Source: a virus (lineage: Duplodnaviria > Heunggongvirae > Uroviricota > Caudoviricetes). From it: a stretch of DNA of 64,000 nt. Location of the stretch: the IMG/VR virus record IMGVR_UViG_2574180019_000006; one strand, given 5' to 3'. Shown here one piece after another: positions 42,496 through 49,624 of the stretch (position 1 is its first letter; each line of letters begins with the position of its first letter). The notes under the pieces were generated by a model that saw only the letters and a list, made by a program, of their open reading frames with translations, ran no database searches and was not told where the DNA came from. The position numbers and the translations under genes were made by a program.

Positions 42496-44055
42496 CTAAT
42501 CTCGTTTCAGAACTCCAAAATCGAATGCGCCATCAACAGGCAATACACCTTCTGCAAAGCCAGGTGTGGTGTCGATGATGTGTTTTCGCTCATAAGAGTG
42601 AGACAACAGGTATTTGTTGCTAATGTCAATGAAATCAGTGATAAAACACACGTTTGCCTGATTCTTCTTGGCTCGTAAGCCACGACCGACACGTTGTCTC
42701 ATTTCAACTTCTGCTTTCCCACCACCAGCAAGAATGACCGCACCAACGCTTGGCACATCAACACCGACATCCAGAATAGTCGAGCCTATTAAAACATCTA
42801 TGTCGCCAGACGCTAAACTGTTCAGCTTTGCTTGCCTTGTCGACTGGTTCGATTCCCCATAAATGAAGTCAACTCTAAGGCCGGACTCTTTCATCATTTC
42901 CATCAGGATTTGCCCGTGGCGTTTAAGACGAACCAGAGTCATACAATTGAGAGAATGTTGCTTATAGAGCAATGCTTCGCGAACAATGGCCTCATTACGT
43001 CCCAAATTATACACGATCCCCAACTGATAAGCCTTTTGGTAGGCAGTGCTCATACCTACTCTAAAATTGAGGTGTTTGTTGGCAAGTTCTGCCTTGATTC
43101 TGGTCTCGTCCGGCTTGTAGGCAACTTTATGATAAAGGAAGTATGGCTTTGCCAGAATGCCTCTATCAATCAGGTACTTTTCCGTGACTTTTATTTCAAT
43201 TCGCCCGGCCACTGCCATCAGACGCATGTTGGCTTCCGTAGAATCCTTCATGAACGGCGTTGCCGTAAGCGCCAGGCGATAGTCTGCGTTCGCACATAAT
43301 CTGGCAATGTCATAGAAATTAGAGCCTGAAGACTCATGCGCCTCTTCCAGAATAAGAAGAGAGACACTTGAAAGGAAGCGTTTCACCAAGTCCCGACGTT
43401 TGAGGTGGTAGCTCTTCTTATCTGGAGTTGCATCGCGTGGTGGTTCTTCAAGGAAACTTGCCAGAGTTTGAACTGTAGCGACGTTGATATGTCGTGATAC
43501 CTGGAACTCACCCGAGCCAATGACTCCAACCTTTTGGTCTTTTAACCACGGTTCGCCATTTTCGGCGCGGTAGTCGATGGATCTCTGGAAGTTTTCGGCC
43601 ATCTGAAACATCAGAACAGAGCGGGTTGTTAAAAATAATGTCATTCGACCGATACGTGCAGCTGCTTTGCAGGCAACATTAGATTTCCCGCCACCAGTAG
43701 CGATCTGCGCAATCATCATTCCCTCTCGAACCAGTGTTTCCACAGTCTGATCCTGATATGCATAATCAGGATTGTATGGGAATGGGTTGACCGCCGGATT
43801 TGGCTTTCCAAGCGCCGGAGCTTTGTCTTTGCGGATATGAACACATTTGATGCCCGCCTTGTTCAAGTTCGCCGCTACAGGCTTGGCAAAGCCAGCAGGG
43901 AACGAGTTTTTACTCCAGTTGAACATCGTGCTTGTGCCCTTCCAGTCGCCAGTCTCGACTTCGTAGCTCAACATCTGTTGCACCAGTTGCTTTACCTTGT
44001 CATCTGCGCCAGAAATAAGTGCATTTACTGCGTTAGATACAATCCGAACAGTCAT
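42496..44055 (-). CDS. Superfamily 2 DNA/RNA helicase (DEAH-like)
   Basis: Motif I ATGGGKS, motif II LEEAHE, motif III TATP, motif VI QRVGRGLR; 519 aa; RBS aaggaaagagg. Confidence 0.75.
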   Translation of the reverse strand: MTVRIVSNAVNALISGADDKVKQLVQQMLSYEVETGDWKGTSTMFNWSKNSFPAGFAKPVAANLNKAGIKCVHIRKDKAPALGKPNPAVNPFPYNPDYAYQDQTVETLVREGMMIAQIATGGGKSNVACKAAARIGRMTLFLTTRSVLMFQMAENFQRSIDYRAENGEPWLKDQKVGVIGSGEFQVSRHINVATVQTLASFLEEPPRDATPDKKSYHLKRRDLVKRFLSSVSLLILEEAHESSGSNFYDIARLCANADYRLALTATPFMKDSTEANMRLMAVAGRIEIKVTEKYLIDRGILAKPYFLYHKVAYKPDETRIKAELANKHLNFRVGMSTAYQKAYQLGIVYNLGRNEAIVREALLYKQHSLNCMTLVRLKRHGQILMEMMKESGLRVDFIYGESNQSTRQAKLNSLASGDIDVLIGSTILDVGVDVPSVGAVILAGGGKAEVEMRQRVGRGLRAKKNQANVCFITDFIDISNKYLLSHSYERKHIIDTTPGFAEGVLPVDGAFDFGVLKRD

Positions 44056-44100
44056 AAACCTCTTTCCTTAGTGCCTTTTGTATGTTATTTGGCTATTATA

Positions 44101-44121
44101 ATAAGTAAGTGATTACTTAAT
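44101..44121. promoter_or_regulatory. Palindrome ataagtaagtgattacttaat in divergent promoter region
   Basis: Recurrent palindromic element family between divergently transcribed helicase and ParB-like genes. Confidence 0.35.
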
Positions 44122-44818
44122 GGATTGTAGCAATAAAATGGATGTAAAAATCACGATTTTGCAGGTTGATGTTGCCAACCTTCGCCCGAATACCTGGAAC
44201 ACCAATTCGGTTGGTGCGCAGAATTTTGAAAAACTGAAAGGTTCTATCGAAAAATTGGGCTTTTTTAAGCCAATTTTGGCTCGTGAACTTGAAGATGGAT
44301 TTTTTGAAATCCTCGGCGGCGAACATCGCTGGCGTGCCGCTATTGAGCAAGGAATTTCAACGGTTCCGGTGCTTTCTGTGGGCAAAATTAGCGATGTCGT
44401 AGCTAAACAGATGTCACTGGTGGACAACGAGCGATACGGTGAAGACGACCAAATCGCATTGCAACGCTTCATTGAAGAAATTCAGTCAGAGCTTGACTAT
44501 CAACTGTCTGAAATCGCCCCGTATGACGACGAAATCTCGATGGTTTTAGCAAAAGAGGCGGCAATCGACCTTGAAGCACTGGAGGCGTTGTCTCGTGGTA
44601 GTGATGAGCCTGTCGATACCGACAAACGAGAGAAAACCGAACGTGTGGGTGCGGAACATCAGACCATGCGCTTCAAAGTAACTTTCGATGCGTCAGATCG
44701 TGTTGCAGAAACCATAAAAAACATCATCAAAGAGCAGGCTATTAACACCGGTAATGAAATGGAGAACGCTGGTGAGGCTCTGGTGTGGCTGGTTGACTAC
44801 TACAAGGAGCGTATGTAA
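44120..44818 (+). CDS. ParB-like N-terminal nuclease-domain protein 1
   Basis: ParBc motif region ILGGEHRWRAAIEQG; 232 aa. Confidence 0.6.
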   Translation: MDCSNKMDVKITILQVDVANLRPNTWNTNSVGAQNFEKLKGSIEKLGFFKPILARELEDGFFEILGGEHRWRAAIEQGISTVPVLSVGKISDVVAKQMSLVDNERYGEDDQIALQRFIEEIQSELDYQLSEIAPYDDEISMVLAKEAAIDLEALEALSRGSDEPVDTDKREKTERVGAEHQTMRFKVTFDASDRVAETIKNIIKEQAINTGNEMENAGEALVWLVDYYKERM

Positions 44819-45486
44819 TGACCAAAAAGTTTGAAATCGTATATCGCGACCCGGCAGATCTTATTCCCTATGAGATGAATGCCAAAAAGCATGATGAACA
44901 GCAGATCCGAGATCTAGCCGCAGCCATTAAAAAGCGCGGATTTGACCAGCCAATTACGGTCGATAAGAACGACGTAATTATTACTGGCCACGGCCGCCGT
45001 GAGGCTGCAATTTTTGCTGGACTTGAGCGCGTACCGGTTATTGTTCGCGATGATCTCAGTGATGACGAGGTTCGTGCGAAGCGCCTTGAAGATAACCGAC
45101 TTGCCAGCATTGATTACGATGCAATTAAGCTACAGAAAGAGCTTGAGTCGCTTGTTCTGGACGATATCGAGGTTTTCGGCTTTGAAGAGCGTGAGTTGAA
45201 TGTTCTCGTTGGCAGTATGACAGAAGAAATGGACACCGACTCGCTAGTTATCGATCTTGGCGAAGAAACTAAACGACAGAAGGATGAACACACCGAGATC
45301 AGTCGTGAAGTTGCAGCGGAAGAAGTACGTGTTGTCGACGTATTGGGCTTTAAAACGCTCCCTGCTGGCTCTGCCATTGTTGTTGGTGATTTGCTTGCCC
45401 ACATGGAAGAAATGACGGGAGAAAGCGGGGTAGACGCATTTGTGGCATATGCGGAGAAGATCTCTTCCGGGGAGATGGCTGCATGA
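44818..45486 (+). CDS. ParB-like N-terminal nuclease-domain protein 2
   Basis: ITGHGRREAAIFAGLERVPVIV ParBc motif; RBS aaggagcg. Confidence 0.65.
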   Translation: MTKKFEIVYRDPADLIPYEMNAKKHDEQQIRDLAAAIKKRGFDQPITVDKNDVIITGHGRREAAIFAGLERVPVIVRDDLSDDEVRAKRLEDNRLASIDYDAIKLQKELESLVLDDIEVFGFEERELNVLVGSMTEEMDTDSLVIDLGEETKRQKDEHTEISREVAAEEVRVVDVLGFKTLPAGSAIVVGDLLAHMEEMTGESGVDAFVAYAEKISSGEMAA

Positions 45487-46121
45487 GCAAATACATCATC
45501 AACGTATCGTTTCAGACACGCGTAAATAAAACCACGCGCACGTTGGAAATCGCTGAGTCGTTCGGGCTTGGCCTGGACGAAAAAGAGTGGACGCTTTACG
45601 ACAATCTGGAGCTGGAAGTGAAGCAGGGCGATGTGGTGTACATTACCGGCCAATCCGGTTCCGGCAAATCCGTTGTGCTGCGCGAGCTGCAACACCAGAT
45701 GAAGGATGAAGGGCTATCTGTGGCCTCCATCGATGATTTTACCTTCGATAATGAGGTTAACGTCATTGACCAACTGGGCAAAACTACCAGTGATGCGCTT
45801 GGGTTGTTATCTATGGCTGGTCTGAACGATGCATATCTGTTTGTTCGCAAGCCTTCTGAAATGTCAGACGGTCAGAAATATCGTCTCAAGATTGCCAAAC
45901 TGATTGAGTCAGGCGCTAAAGTGTGGGCTGCTGACGAGTTCGGCGCTGTTCTCGACCGTGTAACCGCTCAGGTTGTGGCATCTAACCTCCAGCGTGCCGC
46001 TCGAAAGGTTGGTGCGACGGTAATGGTGGCGACGACTCACGAAGACCTGAAGAACGCGCTGCGCCCGGATATGCAGATCACCAAGCACTACAAAGAACGC
46101 GTGAAGGTGGAATATGCCTGA
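45483..46121 (+). CDS. ABC-type ATPase (stand-alone nucleotide-binding domain)
   Basis: Walker A GQSGSGKS, signature-like MSDGQKYR, Walker B WAADEFGAVLD, H-loop ATTHED. Confidence 0.6.
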   Translation: MSKYIINVSFQTRVNKTTRTLEIAESFGLGLDEKEWTLYDNLELEVKQGDVVYITGQSGSGKSVVLRELQHQMKDEGLSVASIDDFTFDNEVNVIDQLGKTTSDALGLLSMAGLNDAYLFVRKPSEMSDGQKYRLKIAKLIESGAKVWAADEFGAVLDRVTAQVVASNLQRAARKVGATVMVATTHEDLKNALRPDMQITKHYKERVKVEYA

Positions 46122-46368
46122 TTTGAAGATCGTAGAGCTGAAGCCATCGAAAGAGACTGATAACAACAACGTGGAAGTCATCCGCCTGCTGGAAGAAGCA
46201 CTTCAGCACGCCAGAGAAGGAAAAAGCCAGAGCCTGGCGCTGTTGATGATCAACAACGACGGCAGTGTTCTTGATTGCTGGCATAACGGCGGGCGCCCGT
46301 ATGTCATGGTAGGGGCGATGGAGTCTCTTCGCCTGGATTTCATCAATGCCAATATCGAGCGCAGGTGA
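46114..46368 (+). CDS. hypothetical protein (84 aa)
   Basis: RBS gaaggtgg; operon-coupled. Confidence 0.4.
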   Translation: MPDLKIVELKPSKETDNNNVEVIRLLEEALQHAREGKSQSLALLMINNDGSVLDCWHNGGRPYVMVGAMESLRLDFINANIERR

Positions 46369-46373
46369 TCGAG

Positions 46374-47264
46374 ATGGCAGATATCATCATCAAACGCTAC
46401 CGCCCTGAAGAGTTTCCGCGTCATCTGGACTTTCTGGAGCGAATGACTGTCACAAAGGGAACTGTAGAGGACTGGCACGCTCTTAAATCGCTTCACTACA
46501 AAACAGACGGCAAACCTTTCGCGCCAACATACTATCGCTGCGAACTGGATGACCGTCTGGTGGGCGTCGTGGTTATGGCTTACCCGAAACTTCTGCTGGC
46601 ACCTCGCCATCGCATGTTTCCTAAGTTGAAACCAACTACCAATACCACCGTGGCTAACCAGTACTGGGGCCGGTACGTGAATAACAACTTTGCGGTGATC
46701 AGCCGCTCAGTTGTGGATACTCAGTACCGTGGCGTAGGCGTCTCTTATCGAATGATTAACCTGGTTAGCAGGATGCATGACCGGCCAATCATTGAGATCC
46801 AGTCATCGATGAGCAAATACAATCCCTTCGCCATGAAAGCAGGGTTTAAGTTCATCCGCCCTGAGCGACCGAAGAGCTATGAAAGTGCACTGCGTGTGTT
46901 CCAGCGCCATTTCCGCTCCGACCCGGGTGATAACGAGGCGATCGTCAAAGAGTTGTTCGCTATGAGCGAGTCTCGTCGTCGCCGTGCACTGCGTGATCTG
47001 GTGGCGGACTACCACAAGAACAGTTCCCTGGCAAAAGCTGGGCGGAATCGTGGCACGACGATTCAGGACATTGCCGACAGTCTGGTGGACGAGGCCAGCA
47101 TTGTGAAGCTGCTCAAGGACATTCACAACCTGAGCTTTACGTCTCCGTTGTATGGTGTGTATCGAAACCCTGACTTTGGTCGTCGACTGCCTGACACGCT
47201 GCCACTGCTGGCATTCGACAAACAACCTTTGGATAAACCGTTAGAAATTGCTTTACCGGCATAA
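46374..47264 (+). CDS. putative GNAT-family acetyltransferase-like protein
   Basis: Motif A-like VVDTQYRGVGVSYRMINLV and motif B-like NPFAMKAGFKFI; ATG 46374 after aggtga (ORF track starts at GTG 46365). Confidence 0.45.
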   Translation: MADIIIKRYRPEEFPRHLDFLERMTVTKGTVEDWHALKSLHYKTDGKPFAPTYYRCELDDRLVGVVVMAYPKLLLAPRHRMFPKLKPTTNTTVANQYWGRYVNNNFAVISRSVVDTQYRGVGVSYRMINLVSRMHDRPIIEIQSSMSKYNPFAMKAGFKFIRPERPKSYESALRVFQRHFRSDPGDNEAIVKELFAMSESRRRRALRDLVADYHKNSSLAKAGRNRGTTIQDIADSLVDEASIVKLLKDIHNLSFTSPLYGVYRNPDFGRRLPDTLPLLAFDKQPLDKPLEIALPA

Positions 47265-47273
47265 GGATTTGCC

Positions 47274-47540
47274 ATGACGTTAACCGATAAACAAAAGGAC
47301 ATCATCAAAACGCTCAATCTCGGTTATGAGCGAGGTCATCTACTTGACCTGGACGAATTGCTTGAAGTTTTGCCGTACAAGACAACCAAGCAAAGTATCC
47401 AGTTCTCAATTCGCGCTCTGATAAAAAAGGGGCTGGTGGAGAAAGGGCATACGCGCCAACGCAGTGACAATCGCTATCACCGCCGAACTCTTGGGTTAAC
47501 TACTTTAGGTCGAGCCAAAGCGAAGTTACTGGTGATGTAA
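47274..47540 (+). CDS. hypothetical small protein, possible winged-helix DNA-binding
   Basis: 88 aa; RBS aaggatt. Confidence 0.35.
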   Translation: MTLTDKQKDIIKTLNLGYERGHLLDLDELLEVLPYKTTKQSIQFSIRALIKKGLVEKGHTRQRSDNRYHRRTLGLTTLGRAKAKLLVM

Positions 47541-47570
47541 TCGGTCTGGGAGCTTATTTAAAGACCTGTT

Positions 47571-47625
47571 TCTGTATATATAAATAATAAGTAACTTATT
47601 AAATATATACGGAAGCAGGCTTCGT
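47571..47625. repeat. AT-rich palindromic element, copy 2 of 2
   Basis: ttctgtatatataaataa...ttattaaatatatacggaagcaggct; conserved flanks shared with 16521-16565. Confidence 0.5.
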
Positions 47626-47680
47626 AAGACATGCCAGACCTAATTAAACACCCCAGAAAACAAGTTGGTTAGCAGATGCA

Positions 47681-47698
47681 GTAAACAAGTTGTTTTAG
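47681..47698. promoter_or_regulatory. Palindrome gtaaacaagttgttttag upstream of terminase small subunit
   Basis: AAACAA-N-TTGTTT family; a second half-degenerate copy at 47657-47671. Confidence 0.4.
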
Positions 47699-47735
47699 AG
47701 CGCATGGACGCGCTCTGTGTGTTTTAGAGGGATCT

Positions 47736-48368
47736 ATGACGGTCGAAAAAGACGAGGTAAAAACTCGCCTGACACCAGCGGAGTGGGCCGAAGCTGAAGC
47801 CAAATGGACGTCAGGCGAATATACACTCTCAAAGCTGGAGGAAGAGTACGGCATTCGTCGTGAAACACTCTCCAGACATTTCAAAAAGCGAGGATTAGAG
47901 AAAGGCGCGGACTCTGTTGGGAAGATGGTTCGTGAGTCTCTTAAATCTGACGCAGAGCTTCGCGCTAAAGCCCGTGCGGAAAAGATAGAAGAACGTCGTA
48001 CACGTTATGACGGCTGGGCGTATGCGTTGGGGCAGATGGTGATGGTCGAAGTCACTACGGCCAAACGTGAGGGTAAGCCTTTAGGGGCGATTGAGGATTC
48101 TCTCAAGAGCTTACAGAGAGCCAGTAATACCCTTGCAAAATGCTTTGAAGTTTCGTCCAAAGCATTGGGCATGGATCATGCGGAAAATGACGAGGAAGAA
48201 ATTCCGAACCTGGTATTTGGTGAGCTTACGCCTTCCCAGGTGGCGAAATTACGTCAGGAAGACGACGAGCCTGAAATCATCGATGACGAATTGCTTGAGA
48301 CGTTGGAAGAAGAAGCTCTAAGCGAATTTGATGCGACAGATGATGGAAGTGAAGGGGAGGACGAATAA
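47736..48368 (+). CDS. putative terminase small subunit
   Basis: 210 aa immediately upstream of and overlapping terminase large subunit; N-terminal HTH-like region, acidic C-terminus. Confidence 0.5.
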   Translation: MTVEKDEVKTRLTPAEWAEAEAKWTSGEYTLSKLEEEYGIRRETLSRHFKKRGLEKGADSVGKMVRESLKSDAELRAKARAEKIEERRTRYDGWAYALGQMVMVEVTTAKREGKPLGAIEDSLKSLQRASNTLAKCFEVSSKALGMDHAENDEEEIPNLVFGELTPSQVAKLRQEDDEPEIIDDELLETLEEEALSEFDATDDGSEGEDE

Positions 48369-49624
48369 TGGCAATCCCGTCCTCGCTCAGTCTTGTGCAA
48401 CTGCATTCTGGACAGATGAAAGTCTTCCAGTCTCCGCATCGATTTAAAGTTGTTTGTGCTGGTCGACGCTGGGGAAAATCCCGGTTGTCGATCTCCACTA
48501 TTATTCGTGCGGCGGCAAAGGAAAAAAAGCAAAGGGTCTGGTATGTCGCTCCTACTTACCAGATGGCTCGCCAGATTTTGTGGGACGATCTACAGGAAGT
48601 TCTGCCTCGTAAGTGGGTTAGGAAAAAGAACGACACCACGATGACAATCGTGTTGAAGAACGGTTCGGAGATCGCCCTCAAAGGTGCTGATAAGCCTGAC
48701 ACTCTGCGCGGCGTAGCGTTGCATTTTGTAGTGCTTGATGAATTTCAGGATATGAAGGCTGACACCTGGTACAAGGTGTTACGACCTACTCTTTCATCGA
48801 CACGCGGCGGTGCACTGATCATTGGTACGCCAAAAGGCTTCTCGGAATTTCACAAACTGTGGACTATAGGCCAGAACGTAGAGCTGCAAAGAAAGGGACA
48901 GTGGAAGAGCTGGCAGTTTGTAACTGCCGATTCTCCGTTTGTGCCTACGGCGGAAATTGAAGCTGCTAAGAACGATATGGACCCCAAATCGTTCGCTCAG
49001 GAGTACCTGGCCAGCTTTGAGAACATGTCCGGGCGCGTTTACTACCCGTTCGATCGTAACGTGCATGTAAAACCGCTTCAGTTCAACCCTCGGTTGCCTA
49101 TATGGGTAGGGCAGGACTTCAACATTGACCCGATGTCTTCAGTAATTTTGCAACCTCAGCCAAATGGTGAGCTATGGGCAATTGATGAATTGGTGCTCTT
49201 TTCCTCTAACACGGCAGAAGTTTGTGATGAGCTTGAGAGACGCTTCTGGCGCTGGAAATCACAGGTAACGGTATTTCCAGATCCGGCAGGTGCTTATCGC
49301 CAACATGCTCGTGGGGAGTCTGACGTAGACATATTCAAAGAGAAGGGATTCTTACGTGTCGATTATTCGAAAAAGCACCCGCCAATTGCGGATCGTGTTA
49401 ATGCTGTTAACCGAATGCTGATGTCCGCATCTGGAGATATCCGGCTGTATATCGATCCGAAGTGCAAGCATTTGATTGATTCACTGGAAAAAGTCATCTA
49501 CAAGCCTGGAACACGAGATATGGATAAGACAGGTGGCATTGAGCATAGTGCAGACGCATTGGGCTATCCAGTACATCGTAGGTATCCAGTCAAAAACCGT
49601 GTTATTCTTGGTGGTTCTCGATAG
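48368..49624 (+). CDS. Terminase large subunit
   Basis: Walker A-like VVCAGRRWGKS, Walker B-like HFVVLDEFQD, C-terminal nuclease-like Asp-rich region; followed by portal. Confidence 0.8.
   Translation: MAIPSSLSLVQLHSGQMKVFQSPHRFKVVCAGRRWGKSRLSISTIIRAAAKEKKQRVWYVAPTYQMARQILWDDLQEVLPRKWVRKKNDTTMTIVLKNGSEIALKGADKPDTLRGVALHFVVLDEFQDMKADTWYKVLRPTLSSTRGGALIIGTPKGFSEFHKLWTIGQNVELQRKGQWKSWQFVTADSPFVPTAEIEAAKNDMDPKSFAQEYLASFENMSGRVYYPFDRNVHVKPLQFNPRLPIWVGQDFNIDPMSSVILQPQPNGELWAIDELVLFSSNTAEVCDELERRFWRWKSQVTVFPDPAGAYRQHARGESDVDIFKEKGFLRVDYSKKHPPIADRVNAVNRMLMSASGDIRLYIDPKCKHLIDSLEKVIYKPGTRDMDKTGGIEHSADALGYPVHRRYPVKNRVILGGSR

Follow-up and report, generated by a model that had tools for sequence, protein, structure and literature searches.

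The operon that lies upstream of the terminase genes in this SSU5-like phage-plasmid of E. coli most likely encodes a module that modifies phage nucleic acid chemically, and not a plasmid partition system. It could well be, at even chances, the SSU5-clade version of a widespread phage module in which a ParB-fold accessory protein accompanies an ABC-ATPase-GNAT acyltransferase; the type has already been predicted and the member is new. The window that we analysed is a stretch of 64,000 nucleotides whose identity to Escherichia phage CMS-2020a is 99.8%. Folds, motifs, gene fusions, operon structure and conserved neighbourhoods were all seen directly in this analysis.

Organisation of the operon

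The operon (44120-47540, + strand) is tightly coupled and encodes six proteins. The two ParB-like proteins, ParB1 (44120..44818; 232 aa; Pfam ParB_N 3.3e-13, PHROG 723 2e-79) and ParB2 (44818..45486; 222 aa; ParB_N 1.3e-8, PHROG 930 1e-112), are followed on the same strand by a stand-alone ABC ATPase domain (45483..46121; 212 aa), a small variable ORF (46114..46368; 84 aa; PHROG 796), a GNAT-fold acyltransferase-domain protein (46374..47264, with a GTG at 46365 as alternative start) and, as the last gene, a winged-helix protein that we call orf88 (47274..47540; 88 aa; PHROG 900; weak match to Sta1/Lrs14-type wHTH). Neighbouring genes from ParB1 to the small ORF overlap by 1-8 nt and are therefore translationally coupled. 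The earlier note had listed the two tandem ParB proteins, the ATPase, the small ORF and the GNAT protein, and all five ORFs were recovered at the positions it gave, together with the motifs GGEHRWRAA (aa 66-74 of ParB1) and GHGRREAA (aa 57-64 of ParB2). It had also called the ATPase ABC-type rather than ParA-type, which the ABC motifs and the Pfam match (ABC_tran 5.9e-13) bear out.

As that note had said, the block diverges from a helicase gene, here an SF2 helicase (ResIII/DEAD, UvsW-like; 42496..44055, - strand; Pfam ResIII 1.5e-14, Helicase_C 5e-13) that is head-to-head with the module in all SSU5-like relatives. We regard the helicase as genomic context, its functional membership in the module being only a possibility. 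The 64-bp gap between them (44056..44119) is a divergent control region that contains a TATAAT-like hexamer and, at 44098-44108, the motif ATAATAAGTAA, which is overlapped by an AAGTAA-N4-TTACTT dyad; SSU5, PhiR41_1 and a Klebsiella phage all keep this region. The motif has just one further exact copy, at 47584, so that one lies upstream of ParB1 and the other upstream of TerS. On the other side, the block does not sit directly before the terminase, as had been claimed: orf88 and a structured intergenic region of 195 nt intervene before the genes for a TerS-like protein (47736-48368, + strand; PHROG 867) and TerL (48368-49624, + strand), which form the downstream packaging operon and are context here. 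An AT-rich palindrome at 47565..47619 (arms of 17 nt, core of 21 nt) is a candidate cos/pac or late control site, and its right inner edge coincides with the deposited linear ends of SSU5 and Cyrano.

The ATPase and the GNAT-fold protein

The motifs of the ABC ATPase are all intact and are invariant in the family alignment: Walker A GQSGSGKS (aa 56-63), signature SDGQKYR (128-134), Walker B AADEF (to aa 153) and H-loop TTHED (184-188). The domain is transporter- or ABC-F-like, unlike the SMC/Rad50-type DNA ATPases, and taken alone it has more than 2,000 database clusters. A profile search gave 992 relatives, many of them of 450-500 aa, and in hundreds of relatives ABC and GNAT domains form a single polypeptide. 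Among the longer ones (465-1260 aa), a Pfam scan placed the ABC domain N-terminal to a GNAT-like region in ten out of ten; one has an intein within the ABC domain, and fusions to PolB or TFIIB also occur.

The GNAT protein consists of a GNAT domain (aa ~1-170), homologous to the C-terminal half of the fused proteins, and a basic C-terminal domain of ~125 aa. Its fold is predicted at high confidence and the CoA pyrophosphate loop is conserved. Its nearest viral structural neighbour is Mom, a DNA-modifying GNAT; membership of the Mom family was rejected on sequence. Both the GNAT protein (pI 9.8) and orf88 (pI 10.2) are strongly basic. The ATPase and the GNAT protein are one functional unit, the two halves of a widespread fusion protein.

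The two genes are co-oriented here, and in 86 related loci the distance between them varies from -30 to ~1020 nt; they abut directly in 21 and have cargo genes between them in the rest. The 84-aa ORF is found in 37 of these loci, is missing in PhiR41_1 and is replaced by a 183-aa ORF in a Klebsiella phage; Rhizobium phages have in the slot a DUF2829 protein, which we take to be of the Tad2 anti-Thoeris family. The small ORF is cargo, occupying a variable slot between the ABC gene and the GNAT gene. Neither this slot nor the correspondence of ATPase and GNAT protein to a fusion had been recognised in the earlier note. The gene orf88 is kept after the GNAT gene across the SSU5-like clade, and its product may be a subunit for DNA binding or specificity, or else a regulator.

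The two ParB-like proteins

In ParB1, a linker that is acidic and helical joins the N-terminal ParB/CTPase-fold domain (aa ~11-105) to a C-terminal domain of ~50 aa, and ParB2 has the same architecture. Both are very acidic (pI 4.5; 4.56 for ParB1). Their best sequence matches in the PDB are Noc and ParB (3e-12), and profile comparison restricts the likeness to ParB/Noc chains to aa ~11-105 of ParB1 and ~25-113 of ParB2. No HTH and no canonical C-terminal dimerisation domain was detected in either protein by Pfam, which gives ParB_N only, or by the PDB profile matches, and in a MAFFT alignment the HTH region of B. subtilis Spo0J faces a complete gap. The AF2 model of ParB1 has a pLDDT of 37.6, and the HTH-less call therefore rests on sequence. 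G67, R70 and N103 (G-x-x-R of box II, N of box III) are invariant in both paralogues and Spo0J, and the catalytic Glu of GERRxRA in box II is not conserved (GG[EHQ]HR in ParB1, GHGRR in ParB2). The nucleotide-binding residues of the ParB-CTPase fold are retained in both proteins.

ParB1 is an extra paralogue specific to the SSU5-like clade, and ParB2 is closer kin of the single ParB found beside ABC-GNAT in several other phages (for the Streptococcus ParB, 6e-39 with the profile of ParB2 and 1e-12 with that of ParB1). ParB2 is also closer to the ParB domain of ParB-methyltransferase fusions, both for PHROG 498 (1.7e-31, against 4e-17 for ParB1) and for the PADLOC MTase_II model (2.9e-17, against 1.6e-8). 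These matches are confined to the N-terminal third of the methyltransferase models, and a methyltransferase domain is absent from both proteins (232 and 222 aa). The 'nuclease domain' label that the earlier note attached to them is an annotation habit.

Recurrence of the module in phages

The pairing of ParB with ABC-GNAT recurs in phages of at least five bacterial phyla. The gene just upstream of ABC(-GNAT) codes for a ParB_N-only protein of ~170-230 aa in Streptococcus Javan511, Oenococcus unk162, Leptospira LE4, Rhodococcus/Gordonia Jace and Arthrobacter EastWest. Gordonia AnClar has such a gene too, one position further upstream and across the ends of the record, and the whole ~110-kb SSU5/nickie/RHEph10 clade has the ParB as well. 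Of 80 loci of one large environmental clade (IMG/VR), 33 have the fused gene directly behind TerL and only one has a ParB nearby, so that ParB is dispensable.

Other neighbours are enzymes. A formyltransferase adjoins ABC-GNAT in AnClar, Burkholderia phiE255 and a Porphyromonas phage; PanD (aspartate decarboxylase, 2e-33) and a CoA-transferase III-like protein stand beside it in Rhodococcus phage Jace; and phages of Streptococcus and Oenococcus have ASCH proteins next to it. The Mu-like phiE255 carries its pair of ABC-GNAT and formyltransferase after the tail-fibre genes, the position that mom occupies in phage Mu. Within the SSU5-clade operon itself we found no tailoring or donor-synthesis enzyme.

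Relation to known systems

A GNAT-ABC system was predicted by the Aravind group to acylate a DNA base (Iyer et al. 2013, NAR 41:7635, as reported in section 3.4.7 of PMC7824862). That system (COG2401; 'MK0520, ABC-type ATPase fused to a predicted acetyltransferase domain') agrees with ours in its two domains and in their order and is phage-encoded, and the family motifs LSxGQ/E..R, DEFxSxLDR, W..HY and RxxGxG are shared here; GenBank annotators had already given the COG2401 name to the genes of SSU5, Cyrano and Klebsiella. Here, in contrast to the COG2401-type fusion, there are two genes with a variable cargo slot between them and an extra C-terminal domain of ~125 aa on the GNAT half, and, relative to the system as summarised in PMC7824862, two ParB paralogues and a wHTH protein are co-transcribed. 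In the literature searched we found no experimental characterisation of the ABC-GNAT system, and a targeted search found no published data on DNA-base acylation by it.

A precedent for the ParB proteins is an HTH-less ParB that is a demonstrated activator of a phage DNA-modifying enzyme, the 5mYOX thymine dioxygenase (PMC13229309). There too, the ParB gene lies next to that of the modifying enzyme in phages, and ParB-dependent and ParB-independent subclasses coexist, as they do for ABC-GNAT. By architecture and adjacency, an HTH-less ParB stands beside ABC-GNAT in at least six lineages, with a partner enzyme that is not a dioxygenase. The partner of 5mYOX-type ParB is instead an Fe(II)/2OG dioxygenase, activation is demonstrated there and inferred here, and the likeness drawn is one of architecture and gene position. 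ParB-methyltransferase and ParB-acetyltransferase fusions also exist (PMC12704722). ParB1 and ParB2 match the N-terminal ~130-150 residues of phage ParB-methyltransferase fusions and share their usual site upstream of the terminase, whereas here the ParB is a separate polypeptide beside a different enzyme. With the canonical CTP clamps of ParABS, Noc and KorB they have in common the N-terminal ParB/CTPase fold and the G-x-x-R and D/E-N motifs, but not the HTH, the parS-binding module, the ParA partner or the canonical dimerisation domain.

Two acylating GNATs offer further comparisons. Mom of phage Mu is a GNAT-fold enzyme that makes N6-carbamoylmethyl-adenine from Gly-tRNA (PDB 8bv8, PMC13219725). 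It has no detectable sequence similarity to the GNAT protein and no ATPase or ParB partner, and it uses a charged tRNA, whereas the ABC-GNAT family keeps the CoA-type R-x-x-G-x-G/S loop. TmcA/NAT10 couples a P-loop ATPase to a GNAT, as here, and TmcA acylates the exocyclic amine of a nucleobase (N4-acetylcytidine in RNA). Its ATPase is helicase-like, not ABC-type, its substrate is tRNA/rRNA, and the homology shown is that of the GNAT superfamily only. The parallel extends to the ASCH proteins, which hydrolyse N4-acylcytosines (PMC6972931) and would be erasers next to ABC-GNAT in the two phage lineages named above.

A predicted acyl modification of phage DNA

The earlier note had proposed three unranked roles. 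DNA modification or anti-defence is the best supported, by the published prediction as relayed in PMC7824862 and by the neighbourhoods, and partition falls away. We consider it an evenly balanced proposition that the module, assisted by ParB and gated by ATP, acylates phage DNA at about the time of packaging. Late in infection, ahead of packaging or while it proceeds, a base in the phage's own DNA would receive an acyl or aminoacyl group, and the DNA so marked, once injected, would resist host nucleases. The ABC domain would dimerise on ATP, as its intact Walker A, signature, Walker B and H motifs suggest, and ATP binding or hydrolysis may gate the basic GNAT subunit or position it on nucleic acid, by analogy with TmcA, which acts on the N4 of cytidine. 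The conserved CoA pyrophosphate loop, together with the aspartate decarboxylase/CoA-transferase operon of the Rhodococcus phage, points to a donor of the acyl-CoA type. ParB2 and its clade-specific paralogue ParB1, which lack a DNA-binding domain, may serve as NTP-dependent activators or licensing factors, as for thymine dioxygenases; given this lack and their acidity, only analogy ties them to DNA. DNA contact or regulation may come from the 88-aa winged-helix protein.

Some observations count against a DNA target. SSU5-type phages are sequenced routinely, with no trouble reported, which speaks against a modified base. GNAT substrates include proteins, RNA and small molecules besides DNA, the ABC domain is transporter- or ABC-F-like, and the SSU5-clade operon lacks a tailoring or donor-synthesis enzyme. 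The environmental clade, with its fused gene often directly behind TerL and almost never a ParB nearby, also leaves some room for a link to packaging.

More tentatively, and with somewhat less confidence than in the above, SSU5-type phage-plasmids, and many phages unrelated to them, may carry a DNA hypermodification of a class not described before: an exocyclic amine would be acylated after replication (N4-acyl-cytosine or N6-acyl-adenine) by an ATP-gated ABC-GNAT writer, licensed by an HTH-less ParB as NTP switch, with ASCH proteins as readers or erasers. The group would be lineage-specific: acetyl-like here, beta-alanyl where PanD and the CoA-transferase are present, and formyl-aminoacyl with the PurN-like formyltransferase.

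Alternative roles

It is unlikely, if conceivable, that the acylated target is not DNA but, for example, a protein of host or phage, tRNA or other RNA (TmcA-like ac4C), or a nucleotide-derived immune signal, in the service of host takeover or anti-defence, with the ParB-fold proteins as NTP-binding regulators, NTPases or nucleases. GNATs as a group act on many kinds of substrate, and among those of phages Rac, for one, acetylates the RNA polymerase of the host (PMC7824862); ac4C is erased by ASCH on tRNA and free nucleosides (bioRxiv 10.64898/2026.02.27.708502; PMC6972931); ParB-fold proteins bind ATP, GTP or CTP and can be toxins or NTPases (PMC12704722; PMC5512222); and the slot of the module gathers accessory genes, e.g., that of the DUF2829 protein. 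However, the recurrent ParB partner is closest in sequence to the ParB domains of DNA methyltransferases, DNA polymerase B and TFIIB are the other fusion partners, and the basic GNAT and wHTH subunits suit nucleic-acid binding, though RNA equally.

We find it improbable that the ParBs and ABC-GNAT are packaging accessories that help the terminase to recognise, prepare or regulate pac/cos, or that acylate a packaging protein, and hence act in DNA maturation and not in base modification. The module is immediately upstream of TerS/TerL in the SSU5 clade and in Streptococcus, Leptospira and Gordonia AnClar phages, the fused gene directly follows TerL in the environmental loci mentioned above, the deposited ends of SSU5 and Cyrano fall within the palindrome just 3' of the operon, and ATAATAAGTAA is common to the regions upstream of ParB1 and TerS. 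This repeated adjacency to TerL makes pac-site recognition, or a terminase accessory role, a minority possibility. Yet ABC-GNAT also has sites away from the terminase: replication genes surround it in Nonlabens P12024S and an SPbeta-like contig, phiE255 and the Porphyromonas phage have it where the tail operon ends, and in Jace and EastWest it lies close to the right end. A structural role leaves the co-encoded PanD, CoA-transferase, formyltransferase and ASCH proteins without explanation. Moreover, phage DNA methylases usually have their place right in front of the late operon.

Partition, with the ParBs as centromere-binding proteins that stabilise a plasmid prophage, is largely refuted and has very little probability left: the Pfam ParB_N matches, the database name 'ParB/RepB/Spo0J family partition protein' and the plasmid lifestyle of SSU5-type elements favour it, but the likeness to solved ParB/Noc chains ends at about residue 105-113 with no HTH or canonical C-terminal domain detected, both proteins are very acidic, neither N-terminus shows a ParA-binding motif of the LG[KR]GL type, the ATPase next to them is ABC-type with no adjacent ParA, the ParA-like gene of the family (SSU5_033), with its small partner, lies ~30 kb off (30.2-30.8 kb versus 59-65 kb in CMS-2020a), Pseudomonas and Rhizobium relatives keep the module with no match to that ParA, and the ParB-ABC pairing also occurs in integrating streptococcal prophages and other lineages that are not plasmid-prophages. 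Repeats inside or flanking the operon amount to the two ATAATAAGTAA copies and one palindrome, with no array, and HTH-less ParBs give no binding specificity to search for.

Implications

Even if the DNA reading is wrong, the analysis corrects a pervasive misannotation: the database records that we consulted name these genes 'ParB partition protein', 'ABC transporter' and 'DNA modification methylase'. The system is easily tested, as SSU5, Cyrano and PhiR41_1 propagate on laboratory Salmonella or E. coli K-12. If acyl modification of phage DNA is true, it would be the second case, after the thymine dioxygenases, of a ParB nucleotide-switch fold controlling a DNA-modifying enzyme, and nucleobase acylation, so far that of Mom on DNA and TmcA/NAT10 on RNA, would extend to a broad set of phages. 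It would also be a new chemical DNA mark on clinically widespread phage-plasmids of E. coli, Salmonella and Klebsiella, some of which carry carbapenemase genes; such a mark would bear on their evasion of restriction and other DNA-targeting defences, and hence on their spread.

A coupled operon in SSU5-type phage-plasmids

Every ORF that an earlier note, made from the sequence, had named in this region was recovered. They encode two ParB-like proteins, ParB1 (44120-44818; Pfam ParB_N 3.3e-13, PHROG 723 2e-79) and ParB2 (44818-45486; ParB_N 1.3e-8, PHROG 930 1e-112), an ATPase (45483-46121, 212 aa), a small ORF (orf84, 84 aa, 46114-46368) and a GNAT-like protein (46374-47264). The motifs assigned to the ParBs were both located (GGEHRWRAA at residues 66-74 of ParB1, GHGRREAA at residues 57-64 of ParB2), and the ATPase is a true ABC nucleotide-binding domain with Walker A, signature, Walker B and H-loop. 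A winged-helix ORF of 88 aa (orf88, 47274-47540) is a further member. Successive module genes overlap by 1-8 nt, and together with orf88 they form one translationally coupled operon. It is divergent from the SF2 helicase, as had been noted, across a 64-bp gap, but it does not lie directly before the terminase: orf88 and a structured 195-nt spacer precede the small subunit gene (TerS). A scan for sigma-70 promoters and terminators gave no enrichment (2 promoters found vs 4.5 expected).

Over the 5.7 kb around the module, identity is 99.8% with Escherichia phage CMS-2020a, 86% with Salmonella phage SSU5 and 80% with Klebsiella phage-plasmids (84-120 kb), which makes the window a piece of an SSU5-type phage-plasmid. 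Beyond the module, the family, as represented by the SSU5 record (NC_018843; L003 and L004; SSU5_080-084, 088, 095, 049/050), has genes for a 'thymidylate synthase' of unusual length (367 aa), a nucleotide pyrophosphohydrolase, two DNA methyltransferases and a CobT/CobS-like pair annotated 'porphyrin biosynthesis', all of which could have a bearing on the modification of nucleotides or DNA.

The ATPase and the GNAT protein as one unit

The GNAT-like assignment has weak support from sequence (Pfam 0.038), and its fold is supported by an AlphaFold model built on 57 homologues (pLDDT 90.1); the CoA loop, R-x-x-G-x-G/S, is invariant in the family. A profile of this family had 992 matches among 1.84 billion representatives, many of them proteins of 450-500 aa in which the match falls in the C-terminal half. 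All ten long relatives tested with Pfam carry an ABC domain in the N-terminal half; among the fused proteins tested, one has an intein in its ABC domain and some are fused to DNA polymerase B or TFIIB. In a joint alignment, fused and split forms share the motifs LSxGQ/E..R, DEFxSxLDR, W..HY and RxxGxG. On these sequence grounds, the ATPase and the GNAT protein are a single functional unit. An SMC-like reading, with ParB loading the ABC ATPase, was rejected, as the ATPase lacks a coiled coil and most closely matches domains of transporters and of ABC-F proteins.

Virtually all of 86 close and distant relatives of the window carry the core genes; the gap between their ABC and GNAT genes ranges from -30 to about 1020 nt, and orf84 occurs in 37. 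The variable gap and the patchy presence of orf84 mark the latter as cargo in an insertion hotspot that split an ancestral fusion. The analysis of this slot used an IMG/VR scan with the GNAT alignment, whose matches are all close relatives. The junction (46114-46368 in the window, and the corresponding slot in the relatives L002, L005, L006, L008 and L009) takes in small accessory genes: the 84-aa PHROG 796 ORF in the window, a 183-aa ORF in a Klebsiella phage, Phage_gp49_66 and RyR-domain ORFs in the Ectothiorhodospira contig, and in the Rhizobium phages a DUF2829 protein, which we take to belong to the Tad2 anti-Thoeris family. For the 84-aa ORF, too, an anti-defence function may be considered.

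Gene neighbourhoods in other phages

Contigs assigned to Ectothiorhodospira and Piscirickettsiaceae, Pseudomonas phage nickie and Rhizobium phages all retain, with identities of about 40-45%, the order helicase (on the opposite strand), ParB1, ParB2, ABC, (cargo), GNAT, small ORF, TerS, large terminase subunit (TerL) and portal. Unrelated phages outside this clade follow a similar scheme with a single ParB, frequently next to a single polypeptide carrying both enzyme domains (ABC-GNAT). Streptococcus Javan511 encodes a ParB-only protein, ABC, a small ORF, ASCH, DUF5681 and TerL; Oenococcus unk162 has ParB, ABC, GNAT and ASCH; and in Leptospira LE4 ParB and ABC-GNAT are followed by three small ORFs (the last being DUF5681) and TerL. 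Gordonia AnClar has ParB, HNH, ABC-GNAT, formyltransferase and terminase, Arthrobacter EastWest has ParB and ABC-GNAT, and Rhodococcus/Gordonia Jace (L180, 3438-6203) has ParB, ABC-GNAT, aspartate 1-decarboxylase (PanD, 2e-33) and a CoA-transferase III-like protein. In architecture these single ParBs resemble ParB1 and ParB2, an acidic linker joining the N-terminal domain to a short C-terminal one. Those of Streptococcus, Oenococcus and Arthrobacter score higher with the ParB2 profile than with that of ParB1, which argues that ParB2 is probably the ancestral partner and ParB1 an extra paralogue of the SSU5-like clade; those of Jace and Leptospira score slightly higher with ParB1.

ParB is not an obligatory partner of ABC-GNAT. 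In Burkholderia phiE255 and Porphyromonas phages, ABC-GNAT and a formyltransferase end the tail operon without ParB, and in Nonlabens P12024S and an SPbeta-like contig ABC-GNAT lies among replication genes. In one environmental clade of 80 IMG/VR loci, the fused gene directly follows TerL in 33 and has a ParB nearby in one. A short PurN-like formyltransferase comes directly after ABC-GNAT in phages of three phyla (phiE255, L175, 3971-5703; Porphyromonas, L178, 3956-5559; AnClar, L174, 1086-2962). In the Mu-like phiE255 the pair comes after the gene for tail-fibre assembly and closes the late operon, as mom does in Mu. Of the 80 contigs L092-L171, about 19 stop within 0-3 nt of the end of the ABC-GNAT ORF, and downstream sequence is not conserved among the rest; the gene is followed either by a true genome end or by a hypervariable boundary. 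In Tenacibaculum phage pT24, the gene upstream of ABC encodes a protein that does not resemble ParB (hhalign probability 0.1). Homologue searches with ParB1 and with the ABC ATPase returned near-identical enterobacterial sequences and no distant architectures.

A possible DNA-acylation system

We propose, at about even confidence, that the module acylates phage DNA near the time of packaging, in an ATP-gated reaction assisted by ParB. Going from fold to substrate, we infer that the ATP-gated GNAT would acylate phage DNA with the help of ParB; a location shortly ahead of the packaging genes hints at late expression. The recurrent partners of ABC-GNAT are enzymes of small-molecule chemistry (formyltransferase, PanD with CoA-transferase, ASCH). 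PanD and the CoA-transferase of Jace could supply beta-alanyl-CoA, and the operon resembles a complete pathway that would turn aspartate into a beta-alanyl-CoA donor for the GNAT. ASCH is a neighbour in two Firmicutes phages, and characterised members of its family hydrolyse N4-acylcytosines (PMC6972931; PMC12707154). Such partners would suit a modification pathway in which the acyl group differs between lineages; neither a structural packaging factor nor a segregation system would be expected to have them.

Three precedents would, by analogy, tie the ParB partner, and hence the system, to DNA. ParB1 and ParB2 both match the N-terminal part of ParB-DNA methyltransferase models, the ParB domain being fused to the enzyme in phage DNA methyltransferases. 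ParB-acetyltransferase fusions exist (PMC12704722). Finally, experiments have demonstrated that a phage thymine dioxygenase (5mYOX) is activated by an HTH-less ParB, in an enzyme family with ParB-dependent and ParB-independent subclasses (PMC13229309). The GNAT half (pI 9.8) and orf88 (pI 10.2) are strongly basic. Mom provides an example of a GNAT fold able to modify DNA, and TmcA of an ATPase-coupled GNAT able to acylate the exocyclic amine of a base (PMC13219725). A GNAT-ABC system of this type was predicted by Iyer et al. 2013 to acylate a base in DNA, as summarised in PMC7824862, and GenBank annotators had already given these same genes the name of COG2401, an ABC-type ATPase with a fused predicted acetyltransferase domain. 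Beside these DNA-linked precedents stands the alternative that the enzyme acylates protein, RNA or a small molecule, for host takeover or anti-defence; GNAT substrates being unreadable from sequence, we regard this as conceivable, if unlikely.

DNA sites beside the operon

The spacer before TerS contains an AT-rich palindrome (47565-47619) with 17-nt arms (47565-47581 and 47603-47619) flanking a 21-nt core, also a palindrome. For SSU5 and Escherichia phage Cyrano alike, the deposited linear record stops at window position ~47601/47602, where the right arm has its inner edge, and in SSU5 the arms form a perfect 17-bp inverted repeat across the record ends. The palindrome is a candidate cos/pac site, although the Cyrano record may simply have been oriented to match SSU5. 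With this site beside the operon and the repeated adjacency to TerL, the module could be a packaging accessory, a role that would leave unexplained both the donor-synthesis and tailoring enzymes and the contexts far from the terminase, and that we consider distinctly unlikely.

Two direct repeats contain AAACAAGTTG (47654-47670 and 47679-47695). Between them and the nearby TerS start lies a GC hairpin with a T-run (47696-47717), whose stem is invariant and whose loop is variable among SSU5, Klebsiella and E. coli relatives. The repeats and hairpin could be a terminator/antiterminator or a site for TerS or a late activator. Exactly two copies of the 11-mer ATAATAAGTAA are present in the 64-kb window, one shortly ahead of the ParB1 operon (44098-44108), the other shortly ahead of TerS (47584-47594), and each falls inside a local dyad; allowing at most one mismatch there are 4 matches vs 1.07 expected. 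The motif may serve as a common promoter or operator that co-regulates the module and the packaging genes.

The ParB-like proteins and partition

ParB1 and ParB2 are built of an N-terminal domain, a very acidic linker and a C-terminal domain of ~50 aa, with an overall pI of 4.5. Profiles of the orthologue sets match solved ParB/Noc chains solely at residues ~11-105 of ParB1 and ~25-113 of ParB2, the CTPase-fold domain, where the G-x-x-R and D/E-N nucleotide-binding residues are kept and the box II glutamate is not. In both proteins the central HTH region is wholly missing in an alignment with B. subtilis Spo0J, a sequence that served as a guide only. The AlphaFold model of ParB1 was too poor for use (pLDDT 37.6; 13-sequence alignment, all relatives at least 83% identical), so that the lack of an HTH is read from profiles and alignment. 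SSU5 encodes a ParA-like protein and a small downstream gene ~30 kb from the module. This ParA is found in enterobacterial members; Pseudomonas and Rhizobium records are absent among its matches (E <= 1e-5), yet these relatives retain the module. A search for parS-like arrays yielded nothing except one two-copy motif. The plasmid partition entertained in the earlier note is argued against by the HTH-less, acidic ParBs with their CTPase-fold-only matches, by the distance of ParA and by the relatives that keep the module without a ParA match, and that the pair is a partition system seems to us extremely improbable.

Extreme acidity (pI ~4.5, linker pI ~4.1) is common to ParB1 and ParB2 (44120-45486) and to the single ParBs of other phages. 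Proteins with a presumed role on DNA are not usually so acidic, and one possibility is that the ParBs act on the enzyme, or as DNA mimics, instead of on DNA itself.

Place among predicted systems

The module belongs to a computationally predicted, experimentally uncharacterised system, the GNAT-ABC system as summarised in PMC7824862. Its clade-specific features are the two ParBs, the wHTH subunit, the division of the enzyme around a cargo slot and the additional C-terminal domain of the GNAT. Iyer 2013 or Krishnan 2020 may already describe some of these linkages. The literature searched, on SSU5-type elements, phage ParB-fold proteins, the ParB/ABC-ATPase/GNAT combination and the predicted chemistry, yielded no experimental work on the module. 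The predicted system is now placed in genetically tractable and clinically common phage-plasmids of E. coli, Salmonella and Klebsiella.
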